From positions 30,521 through 94,520 of IMG/VR virus record IMGVR_UViG_3300032323_003820: 64,000 nucleotides of DNA; one strand, 5' to 3'. Position numbers and translations under genes: made by a program. This document shows positions 29,015 through 51,061 of the stretch, one piece after another; positions within the stretch are counted from its first letter, which is position 1, and every line of letters starts with the position of its first letter. This DNA is from a virus. The notes under the pieces were generated by a model, which worked only from the letters and a program-made list of their open reading frames with translations, did not search any database and had not been told where the DNA came from.

Positions 29015-29033
29015 TAAGGTTCTTTGAAAATAT

Positions 29034-29456
29034 GGGGAAGACATGGAATCGACTGCAATATGTAGGTACAAGTGGCATGTCGGAGCTGAATTAACTCCGT
29101 AAAAACTGATTTAAAAAACAAATGGCAATACTTTTGCTAAGATGTCTGCTCTCGGTTTGATGAGAGAAGCGTCTGTTGTTGCTGCGTAATCGTAGAGAAC
29201 AACACTCGGGTCGGTAAGGACATACACCTAGGAACAGAAGTCCATGAGGTCTAACAAATACCGCGTGATTCAGTTCAGGAAATTTGTTTGGTGGTGTTTT
29301 CGGTTCAAGCCAACTTAATAGGAACCGACCACAGTTGTTAGTTCTAATGGAAAAATAAGAACTATCTATTTGTTGATTGAGAACTAATCAAATAAACATG
29401 TAGTCATTTGTGGTTGCTATTGCAAGACGAGGGTTCGAGTCCCTCCTTCTCCACCA
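29034..29456 (+). ncRNA. ssrA: tmRNA; predicted tag (A)GNTFAKMSALGLMREASVVAA at 29124-29189
   Basis: GGGGAAG/CTTCTCC acceptor with G3-U, 5' GGAATCGAC, T-arm GAGGGTTCGAGTCCCTC, ACCA end, internal frame ending Ala-Ala-stop. Confidence 0.93.
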
Positions 29457-29594: not shown

Positions 29595-31847
29595 ATGTTA
29601 AGAAATTTATTTTTATTATTGGTTTTACCAATATTCAGTTTTTCCCAAGACACATTGTTCAATCAAAAGTTAGATGAAGTTAAAATTAAAAGTACAACTA
29701 AGAAAGAAACCAACATTGCAGTAATCAATATTGTAAGAAACAGTTCAGTCGTTTCTGATGGACTTTCAGTAGAGTTTATCAAAAAAACTCCTGATAGAAC
29801 TGTCGGAGATGCCCTCAAAAGAGTAAATGGAGTAACAATTCAAAACGACAAGTTTGTTTTGGTTAGAGGATTATCAGATAGGTATAATTCAGCAATACTT
29901 AATAAAACTCTTCTTCCTTCAACTGAACCTGACAGAAGAGCATTTTCATTTGATATTATCCCATCTAACTTAATAGATAATATTATTGTTTCAAAATCAG
30001 CAATCGCATCATTACCTGGCGATTTTGGTGGTGGTATAATTCAGGTGAACACTAAAGATGTATCGAAAAATTTTTTTACGATAGGAATGGGTTCGGGTTA
30101 CGGGACCGTTTCCACATTCCAAAAATTCAGCTCGGTGGAATATATTCCGTTTCCCATGAACTTTCCGTCCACATACGATTTTAGAGTTTCTTCAAATGGT
30201 GATAGAAGAGCGTTTACTAAACTAATAGGGTCTCCTAACTCTAAAACAACAAATTCATTTCCTAACCTAAATGGTAATTTGTCTTTTGGTTATAAAAAAG
30301 ATAAATGGAATTTGTTAATGTCGGCAAATGCAAGAAATTCATTTTCTCTAAATTTTATTGACAGACAAGATTATCAATCATCTACTGAATTGGCTTACAA
30401 ATATAAAGACACGTCATTTACAAAAGTATTTTTGGTTAATGGGTTAATGAACCTAACTTATTTAGGTCAAAACAAATATTCTTGGAAAACATTATTTAAT
30501 CACCAAATTGAAAATTCTTATCTGACAAGAAATGGTGAGAATTATGATAACGTACAAGATGTTAGAAGTAATTCTTCTAATAATATTGTTAAGACAATTG
30601 TAAATTCACAATTTGATGGTAAGATAAAAACTTTAGATTTTAATGTTGGTTGGAACTTGATGATTAGAGACCAGCCTGACTATAGAGTCAACCCTATTGC
30701 AAAGTCATTAGGGACGAATACAGAGTATACAACCGCTTGGAGAGACACATACAGGTTTTGGTCTGTAATGGACGAGAATTCATTCAATGGTTCGTTAAAT
30801 AAGGAGATAAACGATTTCAAGGTTGGTGTATCTTATTTGAAAAAATTAAGAAATTTTAAAGCAAGAATTTTCAGATATGATGCTGAAGATATGTTAAATG
30901 AAATAACAAATAACACTGACAAATATGGTGCCGATTTTGATTTGGGTGCTGGATATGTTCAATACGATAAAACACTTGGAAAACTCAAGGTAAATGGTGG
31001 ACTTAGAACTGAATATAATTTATTCAATGTCGAAACATCAGATTTCAGCGGACAACAGGTTCAGGTGAATAGAGAGTATTTGGACTTCTTACCTTCTATC
31101 AACCTTTCATATAATTTAGAGAAAACAAAATTCAGAACTTCATTTTCCAAAACACTTTCAAGACCTGAGTTTAGAGAAGTTGCTAATTTTGCATATTACG
31201 ATTTCGTAAGAAATGCACAACTCTTAGGTAATACAAATTTAGAAAAGACTGACATCTATAATTTAGACCTTAAGTGGGAATACTATCCAAAATCAGGTGA
31301 GAATGTATCAGTCGCTCTATTCGGTAAGAACTTTGTAAGACCAATAGAACAAATAGTGGCAGATGGTTCAGTACCATCCAATCTTCTTTTAACTTTCACA
31401 AATCCTGACAGAGCAAATGTTTATGGTATTGAATTTGAACTTAGAAAACAAATTAACAAATGGTTAGATGTTTATACAAATTCTACAATATCAAACTCAC
31501 ATGTTGAAGTTAATGGGGTGGGAAGACAATTACAAGGACAATCAAACTACGTGGTTAATGGTGGTTTGAATTTCCATAAAGGAAATAATACATTTAACAT
31601 TTCATATAACAGAGTGGGTGATAGAATTTCTGCAGTAGGATTTCAGGGTTATGCAGATATATTCGAAAACTCAAGAGACGTAATAGACATTGTTTACCTA
31701 TTAAAAATTAAAAACGGTGAACTTAAAATCGCGGTTGGTGACATATTAGCTCAACCAACGGTATACTATCAAAAAATAAACAACAGAGAGTTAATTAAAA
31801 CAAATAACGAACAAACTCTCTCGGTTTCGCTAAACTTAAATTTATGA
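29595..31847 (+). CDS. TonB-dependent outer membrane receptor
   Basis: Signal peptide, plug motif (DALKRVNGVT..VRGLSDRYN..FDIIPSNLID), beta-barrel repeats, C-terminal alternating strand. Confidence 0.9.
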   Translation: MLRNLFLLLVLPIFSFSQDTLFNQKLDEVKIKSTTKKETNIAVINIVRNSSVVSDGLSVEFIKKTPDRTVGDALKRVNGVTIQNDKFVLVRGLSDRYNSAILNKTLLPSTEPDRRAFSFDIIPSNLIDNIIVSKSAIASLPGDFGGGIIQVNTKDVSKNFFTIGMGSGYGTVSTFQKFSSVEYIPFPMNFPSTYDFRVSSNGDRRAFTKLIGSPNSKTTNSFPNLNGNLSFGYKKDKWNLLMSANARNSFSLNFIDRQDYQSSTELAYKYKDTSFTKVFLVNGLMNLTYLGQNKYSWKTLFNHQIENSYLTRNGENYDNVQDVRSNSSNNIVKTIVNSQFDGKIKTLDFNVGWNLMIRDQPDYRVNPIAKSLGTNTEYTTAWRDTYRFWSVMDENSFNGSLNKEINDFKVGVSYLKKLRNFKARIFRYDAEDMLNEITNNTDKYGADFDLGAGYVQYDKTLGKLKVNGGLRTEYNLFNVETSDFSGQQVQVNREYLDFLPSINLSYNLEKTKFRTSFSKTLSRPEFREVANFAYYDFVRNAQLLGNTNLEKTDIYNLDLKWEYYPKSGENVSVALFGKNFVRPIEQIVADGSVPSNLLLTFTNPDRANVYGIEFELRKQINKWLDVYTNSTISNSHVEVNGVGRQLQGQSNYVVNGGLNFHKGNNTFNISYNRVGDRISAVGFQGYADIFENSRDVIDIVYLLKIKNGELKIAVGDILAQPTVYYQKINNRELIKTNNEQTLSVSLNLNL

Positions 31848-45449: not shown

Positions 45450-45503
45450 CTTTGACTAATTTAGATATTTATAATTAGGCATAAACTTTTAAATAAAACA
45501 AAA

Positions 45504-45668
45504 ATGACTAAAGAACAAGTATTAGGTATTGTTAGACACGTAATCACTTTTGCGGGTGGTATTCTAGTTGTAAAAGGATTGATTGATGATGCCATGGTTC
45601 AAGAAGTACTCGGTGGAGTTTTAGGACTTGTAGGTACTGTATGGTCAATTGTTGAAAAAAAGAAGTAA
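45504..45668 (+). CDS. Putative holin-like 2-TM protein (not in ORF track)
   Basis: MTKEQVLGIVRHVITFAGGILV..VWSIVEKKK; TATTTAT at 45466-45472. Confidence 0.6.
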   Translation: MTKEQVLGIVRHVITFAGGILVVKGLIDDAMVQEVLGGVLGLVGTVWSIVEKKK

Positions 45669-45714
45669 TCTTTTTGGAACAAATTGAAAAAACTCAGACA
45701 TTGTCTGAGTTTTT

Positions 45715-46014
45715 TTATTCGTTGGTGACTTTACCCTGTTTTTTTAAACTTACAACAGCTTTGTCTACTCTAGAGTCAATTTTTTTTGATAATTCTGTAA
45801 ACTTGTGACTCATTTCTGATTTGTAGTCGGAATAATCTTTTTTCAAACTTTCCATATCTGACAAAAGTTTATCCTTTCTTTTAGTACCTCGATTTACCTC
45901 AATCCACATGAAGATGATGGTAATAGCAAAGATACCTAAAAAGAACATTGAGATTGGGTGTGGAAGCGAACTAACTGTCACTTCATCTGACATTTTAACA
46001 ATTTGTAATAACAT
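45715..46014 (-). CDS. Single-TM coiled-coil protein
   Basis: Hydrophobic segment then helical tail. Confidence 0.55.
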   Translation of the reverse strand: MLLQIVKMSDEVTVSSLPHPISMFFLGIFAITIIFMWIEVNRGTKRKDKLLSDMESLKKDYSDYKSEMSHKFTELSKKIDSRVDKAVVSLKKQGKVTNE

Positions 46015-46053
46015 AATATTTGATTTTAATTATAAAATTATTTCTAATACGGT

Positions 46054-46131
46054 TACTCCGACTCGTGATTCTGAGCTGTCACCATCAAGACAACAACTCT
46101 AGCGAGAGTCTACCCCCCAATGGGAGGAGTA
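46054..46131 (-). ncRNA. Unassigned structured RNA candidate
   Basis: GC-rich island with TACTCC/GGAGTA closing stem and internal stems; TATATTTG promoter element at 46144-46151 on minus strand. Confidence 0.5.
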
Positions 46132-46210
46132 TACGTCATGTTACAAATATAATTACATTTATAACACGAAGTATCAGAAACGTTTTTATTTCAATGAACA
46201 ATAAGTTCTG

Positions 46211-46281
46211 TGGATGGTGTAGGAGTCGAACCTACCTTAACTGAGTCGGAGTCAATTGTCTTACCGCTAAACGAACCACCC
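46211..46281 (-). tRNA. tRNA with CCG anticodon (nominal Arg) and alanine-type acceptor stem
   Basis: GGGTGGT TC GTTT AGCGGTA AGAC A ATTGA CTCCGAC TCAGT TAAG GTAGG TTCGACT CCTAC ACCATCC A. Confidence 0.85.
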
Positions 46282-46329
46282 TGCTAACATTTATAATTAT
46301 AATTTGAAAAAAAATGTGAATCAAATATT

Positions 46330-47019
46330 TTATCGATTATCTATATAAATTAAAACCTGTTTGTAATAGTTTGTGAATTTATCTGACCATAAATCCCATT
46401 TAATATCAACACCATCTACGGAAAGAACCTGAAAGTTATCGAATACTCTTAAATAAACATCTCTAAAAACCTTGAATCGACTTGTGAGGTCAACCCCGTT
46501 GAATTGTCCCAAATGAAATTCACCTGCAACTTTTCTAACGTTTTCTTTAATCCATATAAGATTTTCAACGTTAAAAATATCGTATTCACCTCCTTCACAG
46601 TCTGTTTTTATAAAATCTATTTTTTGAACATTATAGTTTTCTAAAAACTTTTTGAATGTAATTGTGTAGTGTTGTAATTCTTTATCATTATAGGCCTCAA
46701 TTTTATCACTTACCCCAACGTTACTTGAAATTGCTTTATTAATACATGTAACATTTCCTGTTATAGTGTTTTTGTTCAGGGTAGGGAATTGGTCAAAACT
46801 AGGTTCGACACAAAAGACATGTTTGGGTTTATTGTTCAAAATAGAATATGTAAAAATTCCTGTGCTGGCACCAACGTCCATAACAATATCCCCTTCATCT
46901 ACAGTGAAAAATTTTTCGTAAATCCTTTGATTAAAAATTTCATCCCCGATAAATGACTTGTACCATTCCGAAGAATTTCCCCAATCAAAATTTTCTAAGT
47001 TAAGATTATCCATTTCCAT
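46330..47019 (-). CDS. FkbM family methyltransferase
   Basis: MDVGASTG, VEP, IDFIKTDCEGGE, GEFH. Confidence 0.88.
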   Translation of the reverse strand: MEMDNLNLENFDWGNSSEWYKSFIGDEIFNQRIYEKFFTVDEGDIVMDVGASTGIFTYSILNNKPKHVFCVEPSFDQFPTLNKNTITGNVTCINKAISSNVGVSDKIEAYNDKELQHYTITFKKFLENYNVQKIDFIKTDCEGGEYDIFNVENLIWIKENVRKVAGEFHLGQFNGVDLTSRFKVFRDVYLRVFDNFQVLSVDGVDIKWDLWSDKFTNYYKQVLIYIDNR

Positions 47020-47029
47020 TTTTTTAGAG

Positions 47030-47101
47030 TGACCCCATTAGGATTCGAACCTAAACCGGCTCATTCGAAGTGAGACATACTATCCGTTATACTATAAGGT
47101 C
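47030..47101 (-). tRNA. tRNA-Arg(TCG)
   Basis: Cloverleaf, loop CTTCGAA, GGATA D-loop (A20). Confidence 0.85.
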
Positions 47102-47135
47102 ATATTTTGAACTTATTTGTATTGCCGGATTTTTA

Positions 47136-47354
47136 TCATTTATGATGATTTTTACAACTATCTTTATGTATTAATCTGTAAACACTCCCTTCACCGATAC
47201 CATATTCGATTTGATAGTATTCACATCCACTGAAATTAACTTCCCTGAATAGATTACTTGAACCTATAACTTTGGGATTAGATACATTACAAGATAACAA
47301 ATTATAAACCGAACAAAATAGTAATAATTTGAATAATAATCGTTTTTTTCTCAT
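47136..47354 (-). CDS. Small putative lipoprotein
   Basis: LLSC lipobox; GCEY..HKDSC. Confidence 0.55.
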   Translation of the reverse strand: MRKKRLLFKLLLFCSVYNLLSCNVSNPKVIGSSNLFREVNFSGCEYYQIEYGIGEGSVYRLIHKDSCKNHHK

Positions 47355-47360
47355 AAAAAT

Positions 47361-47477
47361 TTAGAATTTTCCCCATGTTGCTCTTTCCATGAGTTCGAGT
47401 CTTTTCTTTTCAACAAACTTGAGAAAATTGTAAAAGTCCACAAATTTCTTTTTGATTTTTGTAAATAAGATTTTCAT
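47361..47477 (-). CDS. 38-aa hypothetical protein (not in ORF track)
   Basis: MKILFTKIKKKFVDFYNFLKFVEKKRLELMERATWGKF fills the gap between tRNA-Asn and next gene. Confidence 0.45.
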   Translation of the reverse strand: MKILFTKIKKKFVDFYNFLKFVEKKRLELMERATWGKF

Positions 47478-47493
47478 AATATTTTAGTTTTTG

Positions 47494-47565
47494 CGTCCCC
47501 TCAAGGTTTCGAACCTTGGACCCTCTCGTTAACAGCGAGATGCTCTACCACTGAGCTAAGGAGAC
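47494..47565 (-). tRNA. tRNA-Asn(GTT)
   Basis: Cloverleaf, loop CTGTTAA, G73. Confidence 0.92.
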
Positions 47566-47569
47566 GTTA

Positions 47570-47694
47570 AGGAAAGGAGAAGATGGTCGAGTGGACAACT
47601 CCTTTTACGATTGGCGTTACTATGATGATTTCAACTCCGAAATACAACTTCCACCCATCATCAGGTTATTATGTATTCATTCCCCAATCAACCT
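47570..47694 (-). ncRNA. Unassigned structured RNA candidate between tRNA-Trp and tRNA-Asn
   Basis: GATTGG/CCAATC, TGATGAT/ATCATCA, AAAGGAG/CTCCTTT stems, AGG..CCT ends. Confidence 0.5.
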
Positions 47695-47697
47695 ATG

Positions 47698-47770
47698 CAC
47701 GCACGTCAGGACTCGAACCTGAAACTCCTAGTTTTGGAGACTAGTACTCTACCAATTGAGCTACGCACGT
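47698..47770 (-). tRNA. tRNA-Trp(CCA)
   Basis: Cloverleaf, loop CTCCAAA, G73. Confidence 0.9.
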
Positions 47771-47777
47771 ATTACTG

Positions 47778-47848
47778 AGGTCGGACCCAGGTTCGAACTG
47801 GGGTAGGAAGTTTTGCAGACTTCAGCCTAACCACTCGGCCACCCGACC
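47778..47848 (-). tRNA. tRNA-Cys(GCA)
   Basis: Cloverleaf, loop CTGCAAA, U73. Confidence 0.92.
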
Positions 47849-47860
47849 ATTTATATAAAC

Positions 47861-48094
47861 CTATGAGACCATATCTAAACTAATATTTTCATTTCTCATA
47901 AGTTCGTGTAACATTTCCCTAACTTCCTCATATACATCATACTTGTCTTGTGGTAAACTGTCAGGCGCATACTTAGTTTTTGCTCTGAGGTCTTGGTCCA
48001 ACTCATACAACACAGACCAAAATTTCATTGCGTTTGAGGCAAGTTGGAAGTCTTGGTTGTCTTCAGGTAAATTAAATTCTAATATTGCTTTCAT
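47861..48094 (-). CDS. Small phage protein (MKAILEFNLPED)
   Basis: 77 aa ORF directly after a host-type promoter. Confidence 0.7.
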   Translation of the reverse strand: MKAILEFNLPEDNQDFQLASNAMKFWSVLYELDQDLRAKTKYAPDSLPQDKYDVYEEVREMLHELMRNENISLDMVS

Positions 48095-48098
48095 GTCA

Positions 48099-48130
48099 CA
48101 AATTTACGAACTATATCTCGAAGAACCAAA
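48099..48130 (-). promoter_or_regulatory. Bacteroidota housekeeping-type promoter for the tRNA cluster
   Basis: TTTG (48130-48127), 20-nt spacer, TAAATTTG (48106-48099). Confidence 0.65.
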
Positions 48131-48133
48131 AAT

Positions 48134-48167
48134 AAAAAACCCCGAATACATTTCTGTAGTTCGGGGT
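48134..48167 (-). terminator. Terminator of putative attenuator
   Basis: ACCCCGAA-C-TACA GAAA TGTA-TTCGGGGT TTTTT. Confidence 0.8.
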
Positions 48168-48190
48168 CGTGTATATAAGTCTTCAGGAAC

Positions 48191-48286
48191 TTAACTAACT
48201 TGATTTGAACTACACTTGAGCATATGATGACACCAACAAGTATTTTGTTGTTCTACGTTAGTATTATGTCTAAAATTGTTGTTCAT
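48191..48286 (-). CDS. Putative attenuator leader peptide MNNNFRHNTNVEQQNTCWCHHMLKCSSNQVS
   Basis: TATTTAT at 48293-48299; contains TGTAGTTC complementary to terminator 5' arm. Confidence 0.6.
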   Translation of the reverse strand: MNNNFRHNTNVEQQNTCWCHHMLKCSSNQVS

Positions 48287-48324
48287 ATTATAATAAATAG
48301 TAAAAAAATATAAAAAATCAATTG

Positions 48325-48411
48325 TACCTCAGGCGGGAATCGAACCCGCACGAACTTTTTCGGTTCACAGGATTTTAAGTCCTGCGTGTCTACCTATTCC
48401 ACCACCAAGGT
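48325..48411 (-). tRNA. tRNA-Leu(TAA)
   Basis: Long variable arm, loop CTTAAAA, A73; TATCTTTG at 48425-48432. Confidence 0.92.
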
Positions 48412-48443
48412 ATTTAATTGATTACAAAGATAAGAAAAGTATT

Positions 48444-49154
48444 TTATTTTGCAAAACTTTCTTCAAAAATAGTGTCACTAACATTAAATTCTTCGTTCAT
48501 TGTATGGTACAAATAAATTAAACCATTTTTTAGGTCAAACTCAAAATATCCTGAAGAGCCTTCATTTATTTCCCAACCACCATGATTGTTTTCTAATTGT
48601 TGGTAACACCAATCTTCAACTGATGCCGGAACATCTAATTGATTTTCAAAATTGTCCTCAATATATCCACTATCGCCACCACCATTATATCTTAACACTA
48701 ATAAACTCGAATCTTCACTTTCTTCTGAAAGCATTTCAAGTAATTTTTTAACCTCTTCATCTTCTTGTGAATCCCATGTGGTTCCATCTTCACTGCCAGA
48801 ATCAGTATATCCACAGTATTTGGTTGCAGATACCATCTTCATATCAACATCAATATCTATCGATAACGTGACATAATTCAAATAGTCGACATAAACATTT
48901 TTGAACGTCATTTTATCGTTACAATAGATTAAAATTTTATCAATAATAGGGTAGAGAGGTTCAGGAACTTCTATGTTATGATGATTACTAAAATTCTTTT
49001 CATGTTGTCCGAAAGGAATTTCTTTATCTAAGTCAACATCGTCTGACCCATCATAGAAATTAAATTCTACTAACCCCGATGAAATTCCGAGTGATTGTAA
49101 ATATCGTGATGCAATTCTTAGGGTTTTTTTATCTTCTGATGTGAATAATTCCAT
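48444..49154 (-). CDS. Acidic protein with DUF6878-like C-terminal domain
   Basis: YNGGGDSG..GWEINEGSSG; TATTTAT at 49166-49172. Confidence 0.55.
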   Translation of the reverse strand: MELFTSEDKKTLRIASRYLQSLGISSGLVEFNFYDGSDDVDLDKEIPFGQHEKNFSNHHNIEVPEPLYPIIDKILIYCNDKMTFKNVYVDYLNYVTLSIDIDVDMKMVSATKYCGYTDSGSEDGTTWDSQEDEEVKKLLEMLSEESEDSSLLVLRYNGGGDSGYIEDNFENQLDVPASVEDWCYQQLENNHGGWEINEGSSGYFEFDLKNGLIYLYHTMNEEFNVSDTIFEESFAK

Positions 49155-49172
49155 AACTTTTAATTATAAATA

Positions 49173-49526
49173 TCAATCTTCGAATTCTAATTTTTTCGTT
49201 CGTATCATCCACTGTGGTCTATTACCTTCTTTCATATTCAATACCCACTCCTTTGCACTTGGGATATATCCATAACAATCTTCTGAAACATGTTGTTCAC
49301 CTACGTATCTTGTGTAAACTGTTTTTCCATCTGAATTTTTAAACTCAGTTCCAAACTTCTGTTCCATTTCGAAAATACCTTCACTATGATGTCTAAACAT
49401 TCTATGTAGAGAGTCACCATACCAAGATTTTGTCTCGTCTAACCATTCGTGTAAATGAATATAATCTTCAGGTTTTCCTCCAAATTTTTTTGCCGAAGAC
49501 TTTGCATGTAAATTAGGGTGTGCCAT
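49173..49526 (-). CDS. DUF6915-like His-rich protein
   Basis: MAHPNLHAKSSAKKFGG..HEWLDETK..HRMFRHHSEG..EQHVSED; likely start 49526. Confidence 0.65.
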   Translation of the reverse strand: MAHPNLHAKSSAKKFGGKPEDYIHLHEWLDETKSWYGDSLHRMFRHHSEGIFEMEQKFGTEFKNSDGKTVYTRYVGEQHVSEDCYGYIPSAKEWVLNMKEGNRPQWMIRTKKLEFED

Positions 49527-50106
49527 CTTTCCAAAAGTTTTTATTATAACCAAACATTTCGAATTGTGGTTTACAGATTTCGTAAACAAAATCTGCCGTT
49601 TTTTGATTATATTCAGTATACCAAGGCAATCTTACCTTATCAGTTTTATCTTTGAACTCATTTATATATTGATTTTCGATAACTTGTTCATGATAACCAT
49701 TACCCAAAGAAATAAAAAATTCTTTCAACGGTTTTATATTCATTAGGTCTTCATTATAAAATTCAGTCCTAACAAAGTAATCTGGTTTTTTGGGTAATAC
49801 TTCCAAATATAATGGAAGATGGAGTTGATAATCCTCTTCCCAATACTCATGTTCATATAACCATTCTTCAAAGTTTCTGTAGAAATCTCGATTGTGTAAA
49901 CACGATAACCAATAAATTGAAACTATTCTTGGTAAAGGATTTCTGATGTTGAAGACCAAAGTATAGTCTAACTTATCTTCAGGAATTGATAGCTCATGCC
50001 CTCTATTTACAAAACTATCACAATGTTTTAAAAGAGACACACTAGACCTTGTACAAGCCCTTTGTGGCATGAGCCAAACAACCTTGTATTTTTCTATATA
50101 CGACAT
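49513..50106 (-). CDS. Sulfotransferase family 2-like protein
   Basis: IRNPLPRIVSIY, VRTE, FEMFGY; similar to 40885..41493. Confidence 0.6.
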   Translation of the reverse strand: MSYIEKYKVVWLMPQRACTRSSVSLLKHCDSFVNRGHELSIPEDKLDYTLVFNIRNPLPRIVSIYWLSCLHNRDFYRNFEEWLYEHEYWEEDYQLHLPLYLEVLPKKPDYFVRTEFYNEDLMNIKPLKEFFISLGNGYHEQVIENQYINEFKDKTDKVRLPWYTEYNQKTADFVYEICKPQFEMFGYNKNFWKDGTP

Positions 50107-50120
50107 ATTTTTATTTTTTG

Positions 50121-50194
50121 TGGACCTGGTCGGAATCGAACCAACGACCTTGAAATTATGAGTTTCCTGCTCTAACCGTCTGAGCTACAGGTCC
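50121..50194 (-). tRNA. tRNA with CAT anticodon, probably Ile2 (otherwise elongator Met)
   Basis: Cloverleaf, loop CTCATAA, G1-C72, C4-G69, A73; TATATTTG at 50202-50209. Confidence 0.8.
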
Positions 50195-50304
50195 GATATT
50201 ACAAATATATAATTTAAATCATTTCCGTCAAAAAACTCGAGTATTTATTTTATAAGTCTTTTTTCCAACGTATTATTTTAATATGTTTAAAACAAAAGAT
50301 TCTA

Positions 50305-50793
50305 ATGGAGGAAGTATTGGTACTAAATTATGATTACAGCCCTTTAAATGTTACCTCCATAAAAAGAGGTTTCAATCTTGTATATAAAGGTAAGGCAGAA
50401 ATTATAAAATCTGATGTAAAAGATATTATCTGTGGAGTAAAAAACTTTGCAAGACCTTTAATAATCAGACTTCTAAGCTTCATAGCATTTCACAAAAGAA
50501 CATACAGAGCAAATAGAAGTAGAATATATAAAAGGGACAATTATGAATGTGTTTATTGTGGTTCAAAAAAAACATTAACTATTGACCATGTAATACCTAA
50601 GTCTAAAGGGGGTTCGAACTCTTGGGAAAATTTGGTAACATCTTGTTTTAAATGTAATTTAAAAAAAGCAAACAGAACTCCCGAAGAAGCTAAAATGAAA
50701 ATGAAGCATACTCCTTATGTCCCAACAATCATGAATGACAATTATGTACTATTAAATGTTTGGAATGATTTTCAAAAAACTTTATTTTCTTAA
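50305..50793 (+). CDS. HNH endonuclease (McrA-like)
   Basis: [29 protein letters not shown]. Confidence 0.9.
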
Positions 50794-50827
50794 CGATTAA
50801 AACTATTTTTGTAACAAAAAATAATCC

Positions 50828-51061
50828 ATGAGTTTAGATTTAAATTTAGAAAACGCACAAAAGGTATTTGATATTTCCATAGTATTATCAAAAACTCTTG
50901 AATTAATCTTCGAAGACAATAACGGAATTGTTTTAGAAATACCCGCCAACACCACAACATTTAAGGATTGGAATAAACTTGTTGTTTATAAAAAAGATGG
51001 TACAATACAAATTACCGGAACTCAAGATGATATAAACGAAGGAACTTTAGTTAAAATTTAA
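50828..51061 (+). CDS. Hypothetical protein
   Basis: 77 aa ORF. Confidence 0.55.
   Translation: MSLDLNLENAQKVFDISIVLSKTLELIFEDNNGIVLEIPANTTTFKDWNKLVVYKKDGTIQITGTQDDINEGTLVKI

Follow-up and report, generated by a model that had tools for sequence, protein, structure and literature searches.

A candidate leader-peptide attenuator heading tRNA arrays of freshwater phages

The leaders of the amino-acid operons (trpL, hisL, leuL, pheL, thrL and the leader of ilvGMEDA) consist of a short open reading frame (ORF) that runs into a Rho-independent terminator, with protector, antiterminator and terminator pairings that are mutually exclusive, and with leader codons that match the regulated product, several amino acids being represented in one leader in ilv and thr. 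Here we describe an element that resembles these leaders, its protector being a candidate only, on the minus strand of a 64,000-nucleotide stretch (hereafter the window; positions 30,521 to 94,520 of the IMG/VR record IMGVR_UViG_3300032323_003820), in which a 31-codon ORF, a terminator and a promoter named P2 stand ahead of tRNA genes (Table 1). The contig measures 94.5 kb and contains nine tRNAs and one transfer-messenger RNA (tmRNA), and because it carries a portal gene its source is a phage; the status of huge phage, given to it in a preliminary description made from the sequence of the window alone, was not borne out. We consider the chances about even that the element is a ribosome-mediated (leader-peptide) attenuator sensing tRNA supply. 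The candidate attenuator belongs to a conserved family, which heads tRNA arrays of freshwater phages with Bacteroidota-type promoters.

The phage module differs from the amino-acid-operon leaders in what it would regulate, namely tRNA genes together with a small ORF and not biosynthetic enzymes, in sampling up to 13 amino acids in its leaders instead of a run of one, and in having a promoter that overlaps the terminator; it has no sequence or Rfam relationship with them. In Flavobacterium, leader-peptide attenuation has been reported for amino-acid operons (PMC9723704). Bacteroid-trp and the other candidate attenuators of Bacteroidota, known from Rfam and the Flavobacterium psychrophilum transcriptome (PMC9723704), share with the phage module the host phylum as judged by promoter type, the proposed mechanism and the lack of a Shine-Dalgarno sequence, but they precede cellular amino-acid biosynthesis operons and none of them matched the phage module. 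Among published examples of extra tRNA genes induced by stress, the closest is the long tRNA operon of Anabaena (PMC8421152; TrcR, PMC10272220), which is likewise turned on when translation is impaired; its control, in contrast, is by a protein repressor, and the paper makes no mention of a leader, attenuator or terminator. T-box riboswitches also tie tRNA supply to the choice between terminator and antiterminator, but they bind uncharged tRNA directly through a specifier loop and the T-box sequence and need no ORF, whereas the sensor of the phage module would be a translated ORF. Phage tRNA genes are usually seen as constitutive helpers in codon usage or as spares against host anticodon nucleases, and to our knowledge next to nothing has been reported on their regulation. 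In the literature on leader peptides in connection with tRNA operons or with phage tRNAs, we found no published account of such attenuation for tRNA genes.

The 31-codon ORF with its codon content, the terminator with a bulged C, the 8-nt complement and two copies of GAACAACA were all recovered where the preliminary description had placed them. The coding part of the leader occupies 48286-48191 and the stop codon 48190-48188, and the ATG lies 37 nt beyond the 3' end of tRNA-Leu(taa). The peptide includes seven Asn residues and the run Cys-Trp-Cys-His-His at codons 17-21. Near its end, TGTAGTTC (hereafter X) is the exact reverse complement of GAACTACA (hereafter Y) in the 5' arm of the terminator, so that an antiterminator pairing (8 of 8 bases) which excludes the terminator involves the translated region. 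When the sequence was shuffled 20,000 times with dinucleotides kept, a perfect 8-nt complement to the 13-nt terminator 5' arm appeared within the 133 nt upstream in 0.7% of cases, and a 7-nt complement in 5.6%. The first copy of GAACAACA, the candidate protector, overlaps Asn codons 2-4 of the leader, and the second one is located at 48253-48246.

A DNA search of 50,697 phage records with positions 47400-48500 returned tRNA matches only and no relative of the leader. Through Rfam cmscan of 45500-51000 (E up to 1), we found tRNAs and chance hits, with no leader family (Trp, His, Leu, Thr, Bacteroid-trp), no T-box and nothing for the terminator; Pfam and PHROG revealed no family for the leader peptide and none for a 77-amino-acid (77-aa) ORF that follows the terminator. 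At least 561 relatives of this 77-aa ORF are present in IMG/VR, almost always within tRNA arrays and usually with tRNA-Cys next. Copies of the module were gathered by blastn of the leader-terminator stretch against the 77-aa-ORF loci and by two pattern scans, one on a motif behind the terminator and one on the ORF; part of the detection required the motif Gln-Gln-x-x-Cys-Trp. Thirty-six distinct copies, here called type 1, were obtained from freshwater phage contigs (alignment A2), and the order of parts is identical in all of them: a promoter or an upstream tRNA-Leu or tRNA-Arg, an ORF of 26-36 codons, the intrinsic terminator immediately behind it as in the window, a conserved GGTTCTTTGAAATATTGGTTG and then TAnnTTTG, and a tRNA a few bases past the predicted start. 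The ORF, the terminator, the 8-bp alternative pairing and the promoter after the terminator, all pointed out in the preliminary description, are conserved in these relatives.

The first downstream tRNA is Glu(ttc) in about three quarters of the type-1 copies, followed by Val, Phe and Lys, and after this Glu-to-Lys block come the 77-aa ORF and then Cys, Trp, Tyr, Met, Gln, Arg, His, Ser and Ile. The window and L006 lack this block, and the module there therefore borders directly on the 77-aa ORF and Cys/Trp; a place before Cys and Trp, as first proposed for the module, is thus not the one seen in most relatives, which have tRNA-Glu next. The tRNAs for Cys, Trp and Asn do lie downstream in the window, but the 77-aa ORF, which had been missed, and a promoter intervene before tRNA-Cys. 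Two further module types (types 2 and 3), built on the same logic, were found in the same phages at the heads of other arrays. A fourth type, present on three near-identical contigs (L090:6607-7000, minus strand; L102; L129), comprises an unrelated ORF of 24 codons and an unrelated terminator (CCCATCTCC...GAGATGGG); its last codons hold GGAGATGG, a perfect 8-nt complement to the terminator 5' arm next to the stop codon, and it heads a Glu-Ala-Met-Met-Gly-Asp-Asp-Arg-Thr-Met array.

The alternative pairing covaries in the family. For the X:Y antiterminator (A2 columns 78-87 with 145-154), 91% of cells were paired against 29-39% in slid registers, and the covariation score was 0.210 with a shuffle mean of 0.167, a score reached by one of 500 shuffles. 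Three pairs change on both sides; pair 86/146 is GC 17 times, AU 7 times and GU 3 times, and at this pair the terminator 3' arm meets the same C-to-T change mostly by wobble. The terminator stem (columns 143-154 with 159-170) was 94.2% paired against 20-54% slid, with a covariation of 0.221 (0 of 500 shuffles), and the covariation of X:Y is as good as that of the terminator's own stem. In type 2, X:Y was paired in 97%, with GATTCAG/CTGAATC versus GGTTCAG/CTGAACC. Pairing of the 5' segment with X (columns 5-12 with 78-85) reached 75.6% against 23-42% slid, and the protector is a plausible, unproven third element of the switch.

In the 36 type-1 copies no stop codon falls in the leader frame, against 79 and 107 stops in the other two frames. 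The frame is open from an invariant ATG past the antiterminator segment, which is true also for copies found without an ORF criterion, and it is open in the three other module types; other frames carry 2-3 stops per copy. An A at -3, which favours initiation in Flavobacterium (PMC6847099), was present in 33 of 37 copies. Pairwise leader differences by codon position numbered 2377/3230/3549, and 28% of the single-base codon differences were synonymous. Compared with relatives 97% identical to the window, the leader ORF showed five substitutions, four of them non-synonymous, including His20 to Gln (H20Q), and the 77-aa ORF showed nine base differences, two of which alter an amino acid. The leader peptide evolves almost neutrally. 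At the RNA level, codons 2-4 (AACTACA) are complementary to X; CAACAA, encoding Gln-Gln, pairs with TTGTTG inside Cys-Trp in the RNAalifold consensus, where CAA-to-CAG changes retain G-U pairs; and X, in the form GT[AG]GTTCGG, is kept as nucleotides and read Cys-Ser-Ser, Val-Val-Arg or Ala-Val-Val-Ser depending on the clade. Because the frame is open while the peptide is nearly neutral and the RNA constrained, we read the ORF as a leader rather than a functional protein; such a combination is the signature of a putative leader and not that of a protein gene.

Eleven of the 30 codons of the window leader (7 Asn, 3 Cys and 1 Trp) are cognate to the downstream array, against an expected 0.10 (P=8e-5), and by amino acid the count is 12 of 30 against 13% expected (P=1.5e-4); for the L005 group it is 27 of 32 against 56%. 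Every type-1 leader was at or over the amino-acid expectation, and the leaders ahead of a 13-tRNA array hold all 13 amino acids. Permutation of the arrays among 19 representatives gave P ~1e-4, for sequences that are related and with phylogeny uncontrolled. The evidence from types 2 and 3 is stronger. The type-3 leader, 22 codons ahead of Leu(taa)-Arg(tct)-Leu(tag), contains eight Leu codons (TTA five times, CTA once, CTT twice) and four Arg codons, all AGA, with 10 of 21 codons cognate against 0.09 (P=4e-6). Ahead of Pro-Asn-Asp-Gly(-Gly)-Thr, the type-2 leader has the core Thr-Pro-Thr-Thr-Pro-Asn-Gly-Asp-Gly-Gly and 18 of 30 cognate codons against 0.25 (P=6e-5), and the fourth type (L090) has 13 of 23 against 0.30 expected. 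Within type 2, L164 has neither tRNA-Asp nor an Asp codon, and its close relative L185 has both. Asn at codons 8, 10 and 15 of the window leader is replaced by Ile, Ile and Phe in L003 and L051, the divergent relatives closest to the window, and these two have tRNA-Ile and tRNA-Phe directly downstream. Considered statistically, and with tests that were partly post hoc, the putative regulatory codons are cognate to the regulated function, as those of an attenuator are.

The tracking of downstream tRNAs by leader codons, as foreseen in the preliminary description, accordingly held as an enrichment in four module types and failed in its details for His and for Cys/Trp. His-His as a sensor is not conserved even in the 97%-identical relatives (H20Q), and the contig has no His tRNA. 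Cys-Trp as a simple sensor of Cys and Trp had to be given up too, being present in 36 of 36 type-1 copies whatever tRNA follows and forming a hairpin with Gln-Gln (CAACAA/UUGUUG). We considered whether the whole motif Gln-Gln-x-x-Cys-Trp might be a conserved arrest peptide or a set of Cys/Trp sensor codons, and set this aside, since CAACAA pairs with TTGTTG and the motif was partly required by the detection.

The motif TATTTAT ahead of the leader ORF, pointed out in the preliminary description, is not a full TAnnTTTG box, which in Flavobacterium is located at -12 to -5 (PMC9723704), and a complete -7 box belonging to the leader itself is absent. Since the nearest full promoter upstream stands ahead of tRNA-Leu(taa), the leader is probably co-transcribed with tRNA-Leu from that promoter; some module copies carry a full promoter of their own upstream. 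In the proposed mechanism, transcription from the tRNA-Leu promoter would run over the 31-codon ORF. During smooth translation X (TGTAGTTC) would be covered by the ribosome or re-paired with the 5' segment (GAACAACA), the terminator would form and transcription would stop. An early stall at codons whose tRNAs are scarce would leave X free to pair with the emerging 5' arm of the terminator, and once X:Y has formed the RNA polymerase would continue across the 77-aa ORF and through the genes of tRNA-Cys, tRNA-Trp, tRNA-Asn and the two tRNA-Arg. P2 behind the terminator would provide expression independent of the switch. That the leader is translated, that ribosomes stall on it, that polymerase reads through and that tRNA supply is the signal are predictions from the sequence.

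If the mechanism is true, the phage would monitor decoding capacity codon by codon and make its own tRNAs on demand. Leader-peptide attenuation would then reach beyond amino-acid biosynthesis, to tRNA genes and into viruses, and a compact, portable sensor of tRNA supply would be available for Bacteroidota. In an extended form, which we propose tentatively and think somewhat doubtful, each tRNA block of the phages of this family would be gated by a multi-codon "checklist" leader measuring charged tRNA for exactly the tRNAs behind it, and read-through transcripts, but not those from P2, would carry a boxA-like element that could resist termination along the untranslated array. Such a system would act as a feedback sensor for damage to translation, as by host tRNA-cleaving defences, on the trp-attenuator principle.

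Several observations weigh against the attenuator. The conserved TTG-N19/20-TAnnTTTG promoter P2 overlaps the T-tract of the terminator and separates the terminator from the regulated genes, which, unlike those behind a simple attenuator, would not be transcribed by read-through alone. Because P2 bypasses the switch, the tRNAs need no read-through, and read-through can only add to their expression or interfere with it. P2 is kept in the relatives of all module types, where only the nn of TAnnTTTG vary and the gap to the tRNA is short and fixed. The protector role suggested for GAACAACA stood in part: a conserved 5' segment is complementary to the antiterminator strand, but despite this complementarity the protector:X pairing showed no covariation in alignment A2. 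The stop codon is found 3-29 nt past X across copies and 8-29 nt past X in most type-1 relatives, where a ribosome at the stop codon would not cover X in every case; such masking would work in some clades only, and elsewhere the protector would be needed. His (three codons), Gln and Ser of the window leader have no cognate tRNA downstream, and neither of the two Arg tRNAs there, Arg(tcg) and Arg(ccg), reads its Arg codon AGA. The conserved Gln-Gln and Cys-Trp can be explained by the RNA hairpin, and the codon-enrichment tests were partly post hoc, on related sequences with phylogeny uncontrolled.

Folding at equilibrium is also unfavourable. The preliminary description had asked for a fold with the leader masked; when a ribosome footprint was moved along the ORF in steps, the terminator of the window copy stayed formed (P ~0.98) at every position, and this thermodynamic test taken alone thus lends no support to a switch in the window copy. 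No terminator loss was seen for the window, L024, L005, L093 and L123, that of L090 went down to ~0.5 only, and clear switching was limited to L095 and L145. For the nascent transcript, before the terminator 3' arm is made, the prediction is X:Y both in the window and in most relatives, and in some relatives the fold without ribosome favours protector:X over X:Y. In the window the X:Y duplex has -10.9 kcal/mol and the terminator -14.6, whereas among relatives X:Y reaches -18.9 with a terminator of -16.8; over the family X:Y ranges from -9.5 to -18.9 kcal/mol and the terminators from -12 to -17. Considering the nascent fold and these energies, the switch is kinetically plausible in the model, and the window copy would be among the weaker ones.

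The covariation of X:Y and the architecture do not depend on which codons stall, and they would fit a translation-coupled attenuator that reports general translation capacity (ribosome availability, RNA polymerase coupling or inhibition by host defences), with the codon match as a by-product. Its invariant positions could be explained by RNA pairing, type-1 leaders retain Cys-Trp and Gln-Gln whatever tRNA follows, and the Anabaena tRNA operon is induced through its repressor by general translational stress (PMC8421152, PMC10272220). We nevertheless think such a general sensor unlikely, as it is at odds with the codon-level enrichment in four module types and with the lineage matches, in which a Leu/Arg leader stands ahead of Leu-Arg-Leu and Asp codons are lost along with tRNA-Asp.

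Two other explanations do without a switch, and both appear to us improbable. The ORF could be a stand-alone micro-gene for a peptide of 26-36 residues with its own terminator, the tRNAs being driven by P2 alone, and this would suit the conservation of the ORF with its good start context, the conservation of P2 and the full own promoter of some copies; against it, the peptide is nearly neutral, its C-terminal part shifts frame between clades while the nucleotides are retained, X:Y covaries, no Pfam or PHROG family was matched, and the leader composition follows the tRNA arrays. That last point, seen as codon composition, speaks equally against a small non-coding RNA (sRNA) freed from the tRNA-Leu precursor, a long imperfect hairpin plus terminator in which the ORF would be incidental. 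The minimum free energy (MFE) folds of the family do have a typical sRNA shape, a long hairpin from the 5' segment to X with the central CAACAA/UUGUUG stem and then the terminator, and the fold z-score of the window is -2.4, but the frame is open in all copies and in three other module types, against 2-3 stops per copy in the other frames, the ATG does not vary and is preceded by an A at -3, and no Rfam family matched. Finally, terminators are common after tRNA genes and short ORFs are frequent in AT-rich DNA, so that the terminator might simply end the tRNA-Leu transcript, with the ORF and the 8-nt complement due to chance; with an 8-mer probability of ~0.007, and contradicted by an ORF and a pairing conserved and covarying in 36 relatives, this is hardly credible. 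The attenuator sensing tRNA supply is the explanation which we prefer.

Table 1. Features of the candidate attenuator locus in the window
Feature	Position	Strand	Basis
Promoter of tRNA-Leu, TTG-N19-TATCTTTG	48425..48454	-	Motif scan
tRNA-Leu(taa)	48324..48411	-	ARAGORN; Rfam tRNA, 56.7 bits
Leader ORF, 31 codons + TAA stop, A at -3	48188..48286	-	ORF reading and family open frame
Segment 1 (protector), GAACAACA	48277..48284	-	7/8 complement to antiterminator strand; paired with X in MFE fold
Central hairpin CAACAA / TTGTTG	48234..48250	-	RNAalifold consensus; spans Gln-Gln and Cys-Trp codons
Segment 2 (X), antiterminator 5' strand, TGTAGTTC	48207..48214	-	Leader codons 25-27
Segment 3 (Y), GAACTACA, within terminator 5' arm	48155..48162	-	Exact reverse complement of X
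Intrinsic terminator: stem with bulged C, GAAA loop, T-tract; -14.6 kcal/mol	48134..48167	-	Folding
Promoter P2, TTG-N20-TAAATTTG	48099..48129	-	Motif scan
77-aa ORF	47861..48094	-	ORF call; relatives in tRNA arrays
tRNA-Cys(gca), tRNA-Trp(cca), 125-nt spacer element, tRNA-Asn(gtt)	47493..47848	-	ARAGORN and Rfam

The -33 TTG of P2 directly abuts the T-tract of the terminator, and transcription is predicted to start at the A of the following ATG; the 77-aa ORF of the window is predicted to be leaderless from P2. Past tRNA-Asn we found two small ORFs, tRNA-Arg(tcg), a methyltransferase-like gene and tRNA-Arg(ccg). On looking before the other tRNAs of the contig and the tmRNA, no leader like the Cys/Trp/Asn leader was found. 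In the 97%-identical relatives (L080:4770-4800 and L081; alignment A1 columns 89-114), tRNA-Leu(taa) carries a 26-nt insertion in the anticodon loop that is absent from the window (48411-48324); with it the tRNA was not called by ARAGORN in L080/L081, and it may be a small intron or insertion.

The Leu-Arg-Leu array is headed by the Leu/Arg-rich leader in some phages and by a plain terminator and promoter after a DUF6878-like gene in others (L086:1250-1434, L096, L100, L103, L117 versus L093, L134, L160). Because this array has a leader or a plain terminator depending on the phage, the Leu/Arg leader looks like an add-on that would make a fixed terminator conditional.

The boxA-like motif GGTTCTTTGAAA recalls the boxA/Nus antitermination of rRNA operons: it follows the terminator in relatives, where it fills the gap between the terminator and the -7 box, and it also heads the phage tmRNA precursor. 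Unlike boxA of the rRNA operons, the motif lies upstream of the -7 box of P2 in the tRNA modules and is degenerate in the window (48127-48107, minus strand), and it is a candidate by sequence only. In the 94.5-kb contig GGTTCTTTGAAA occurs once, at 29019-29029 (plus strand), as the predicted first bases of the precursor of the phage-encoded tmRNA (29034-29456, plus strand; 21-residue tag). Among the matches in the fetched loci, a set biased by the retrieval, 53 of 79 had a tRNA within 80 nt downstream.

In public sequencing runs, freshwater DNA runs contain relatives, and RNA-type runs contain only ~5% of the sampled words, as contigs only. Over 47450-48450 the RNA-run contigs cover the tRNAs, the Trp-Asn spacer and the first bases of the 77-aa ORF, and one contig in one marine RNA-type run covers 48134-48200. 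The 125-nt element between tRNA-Trp and tRNA-Asn (47566-47696, minus strand) had no Rfam match. Contigs from four RNA-type libraries of different studies span 47569-47695 at ~88-95% identity, and because of these matches the spacer is considered conserved well beyond the window phage.

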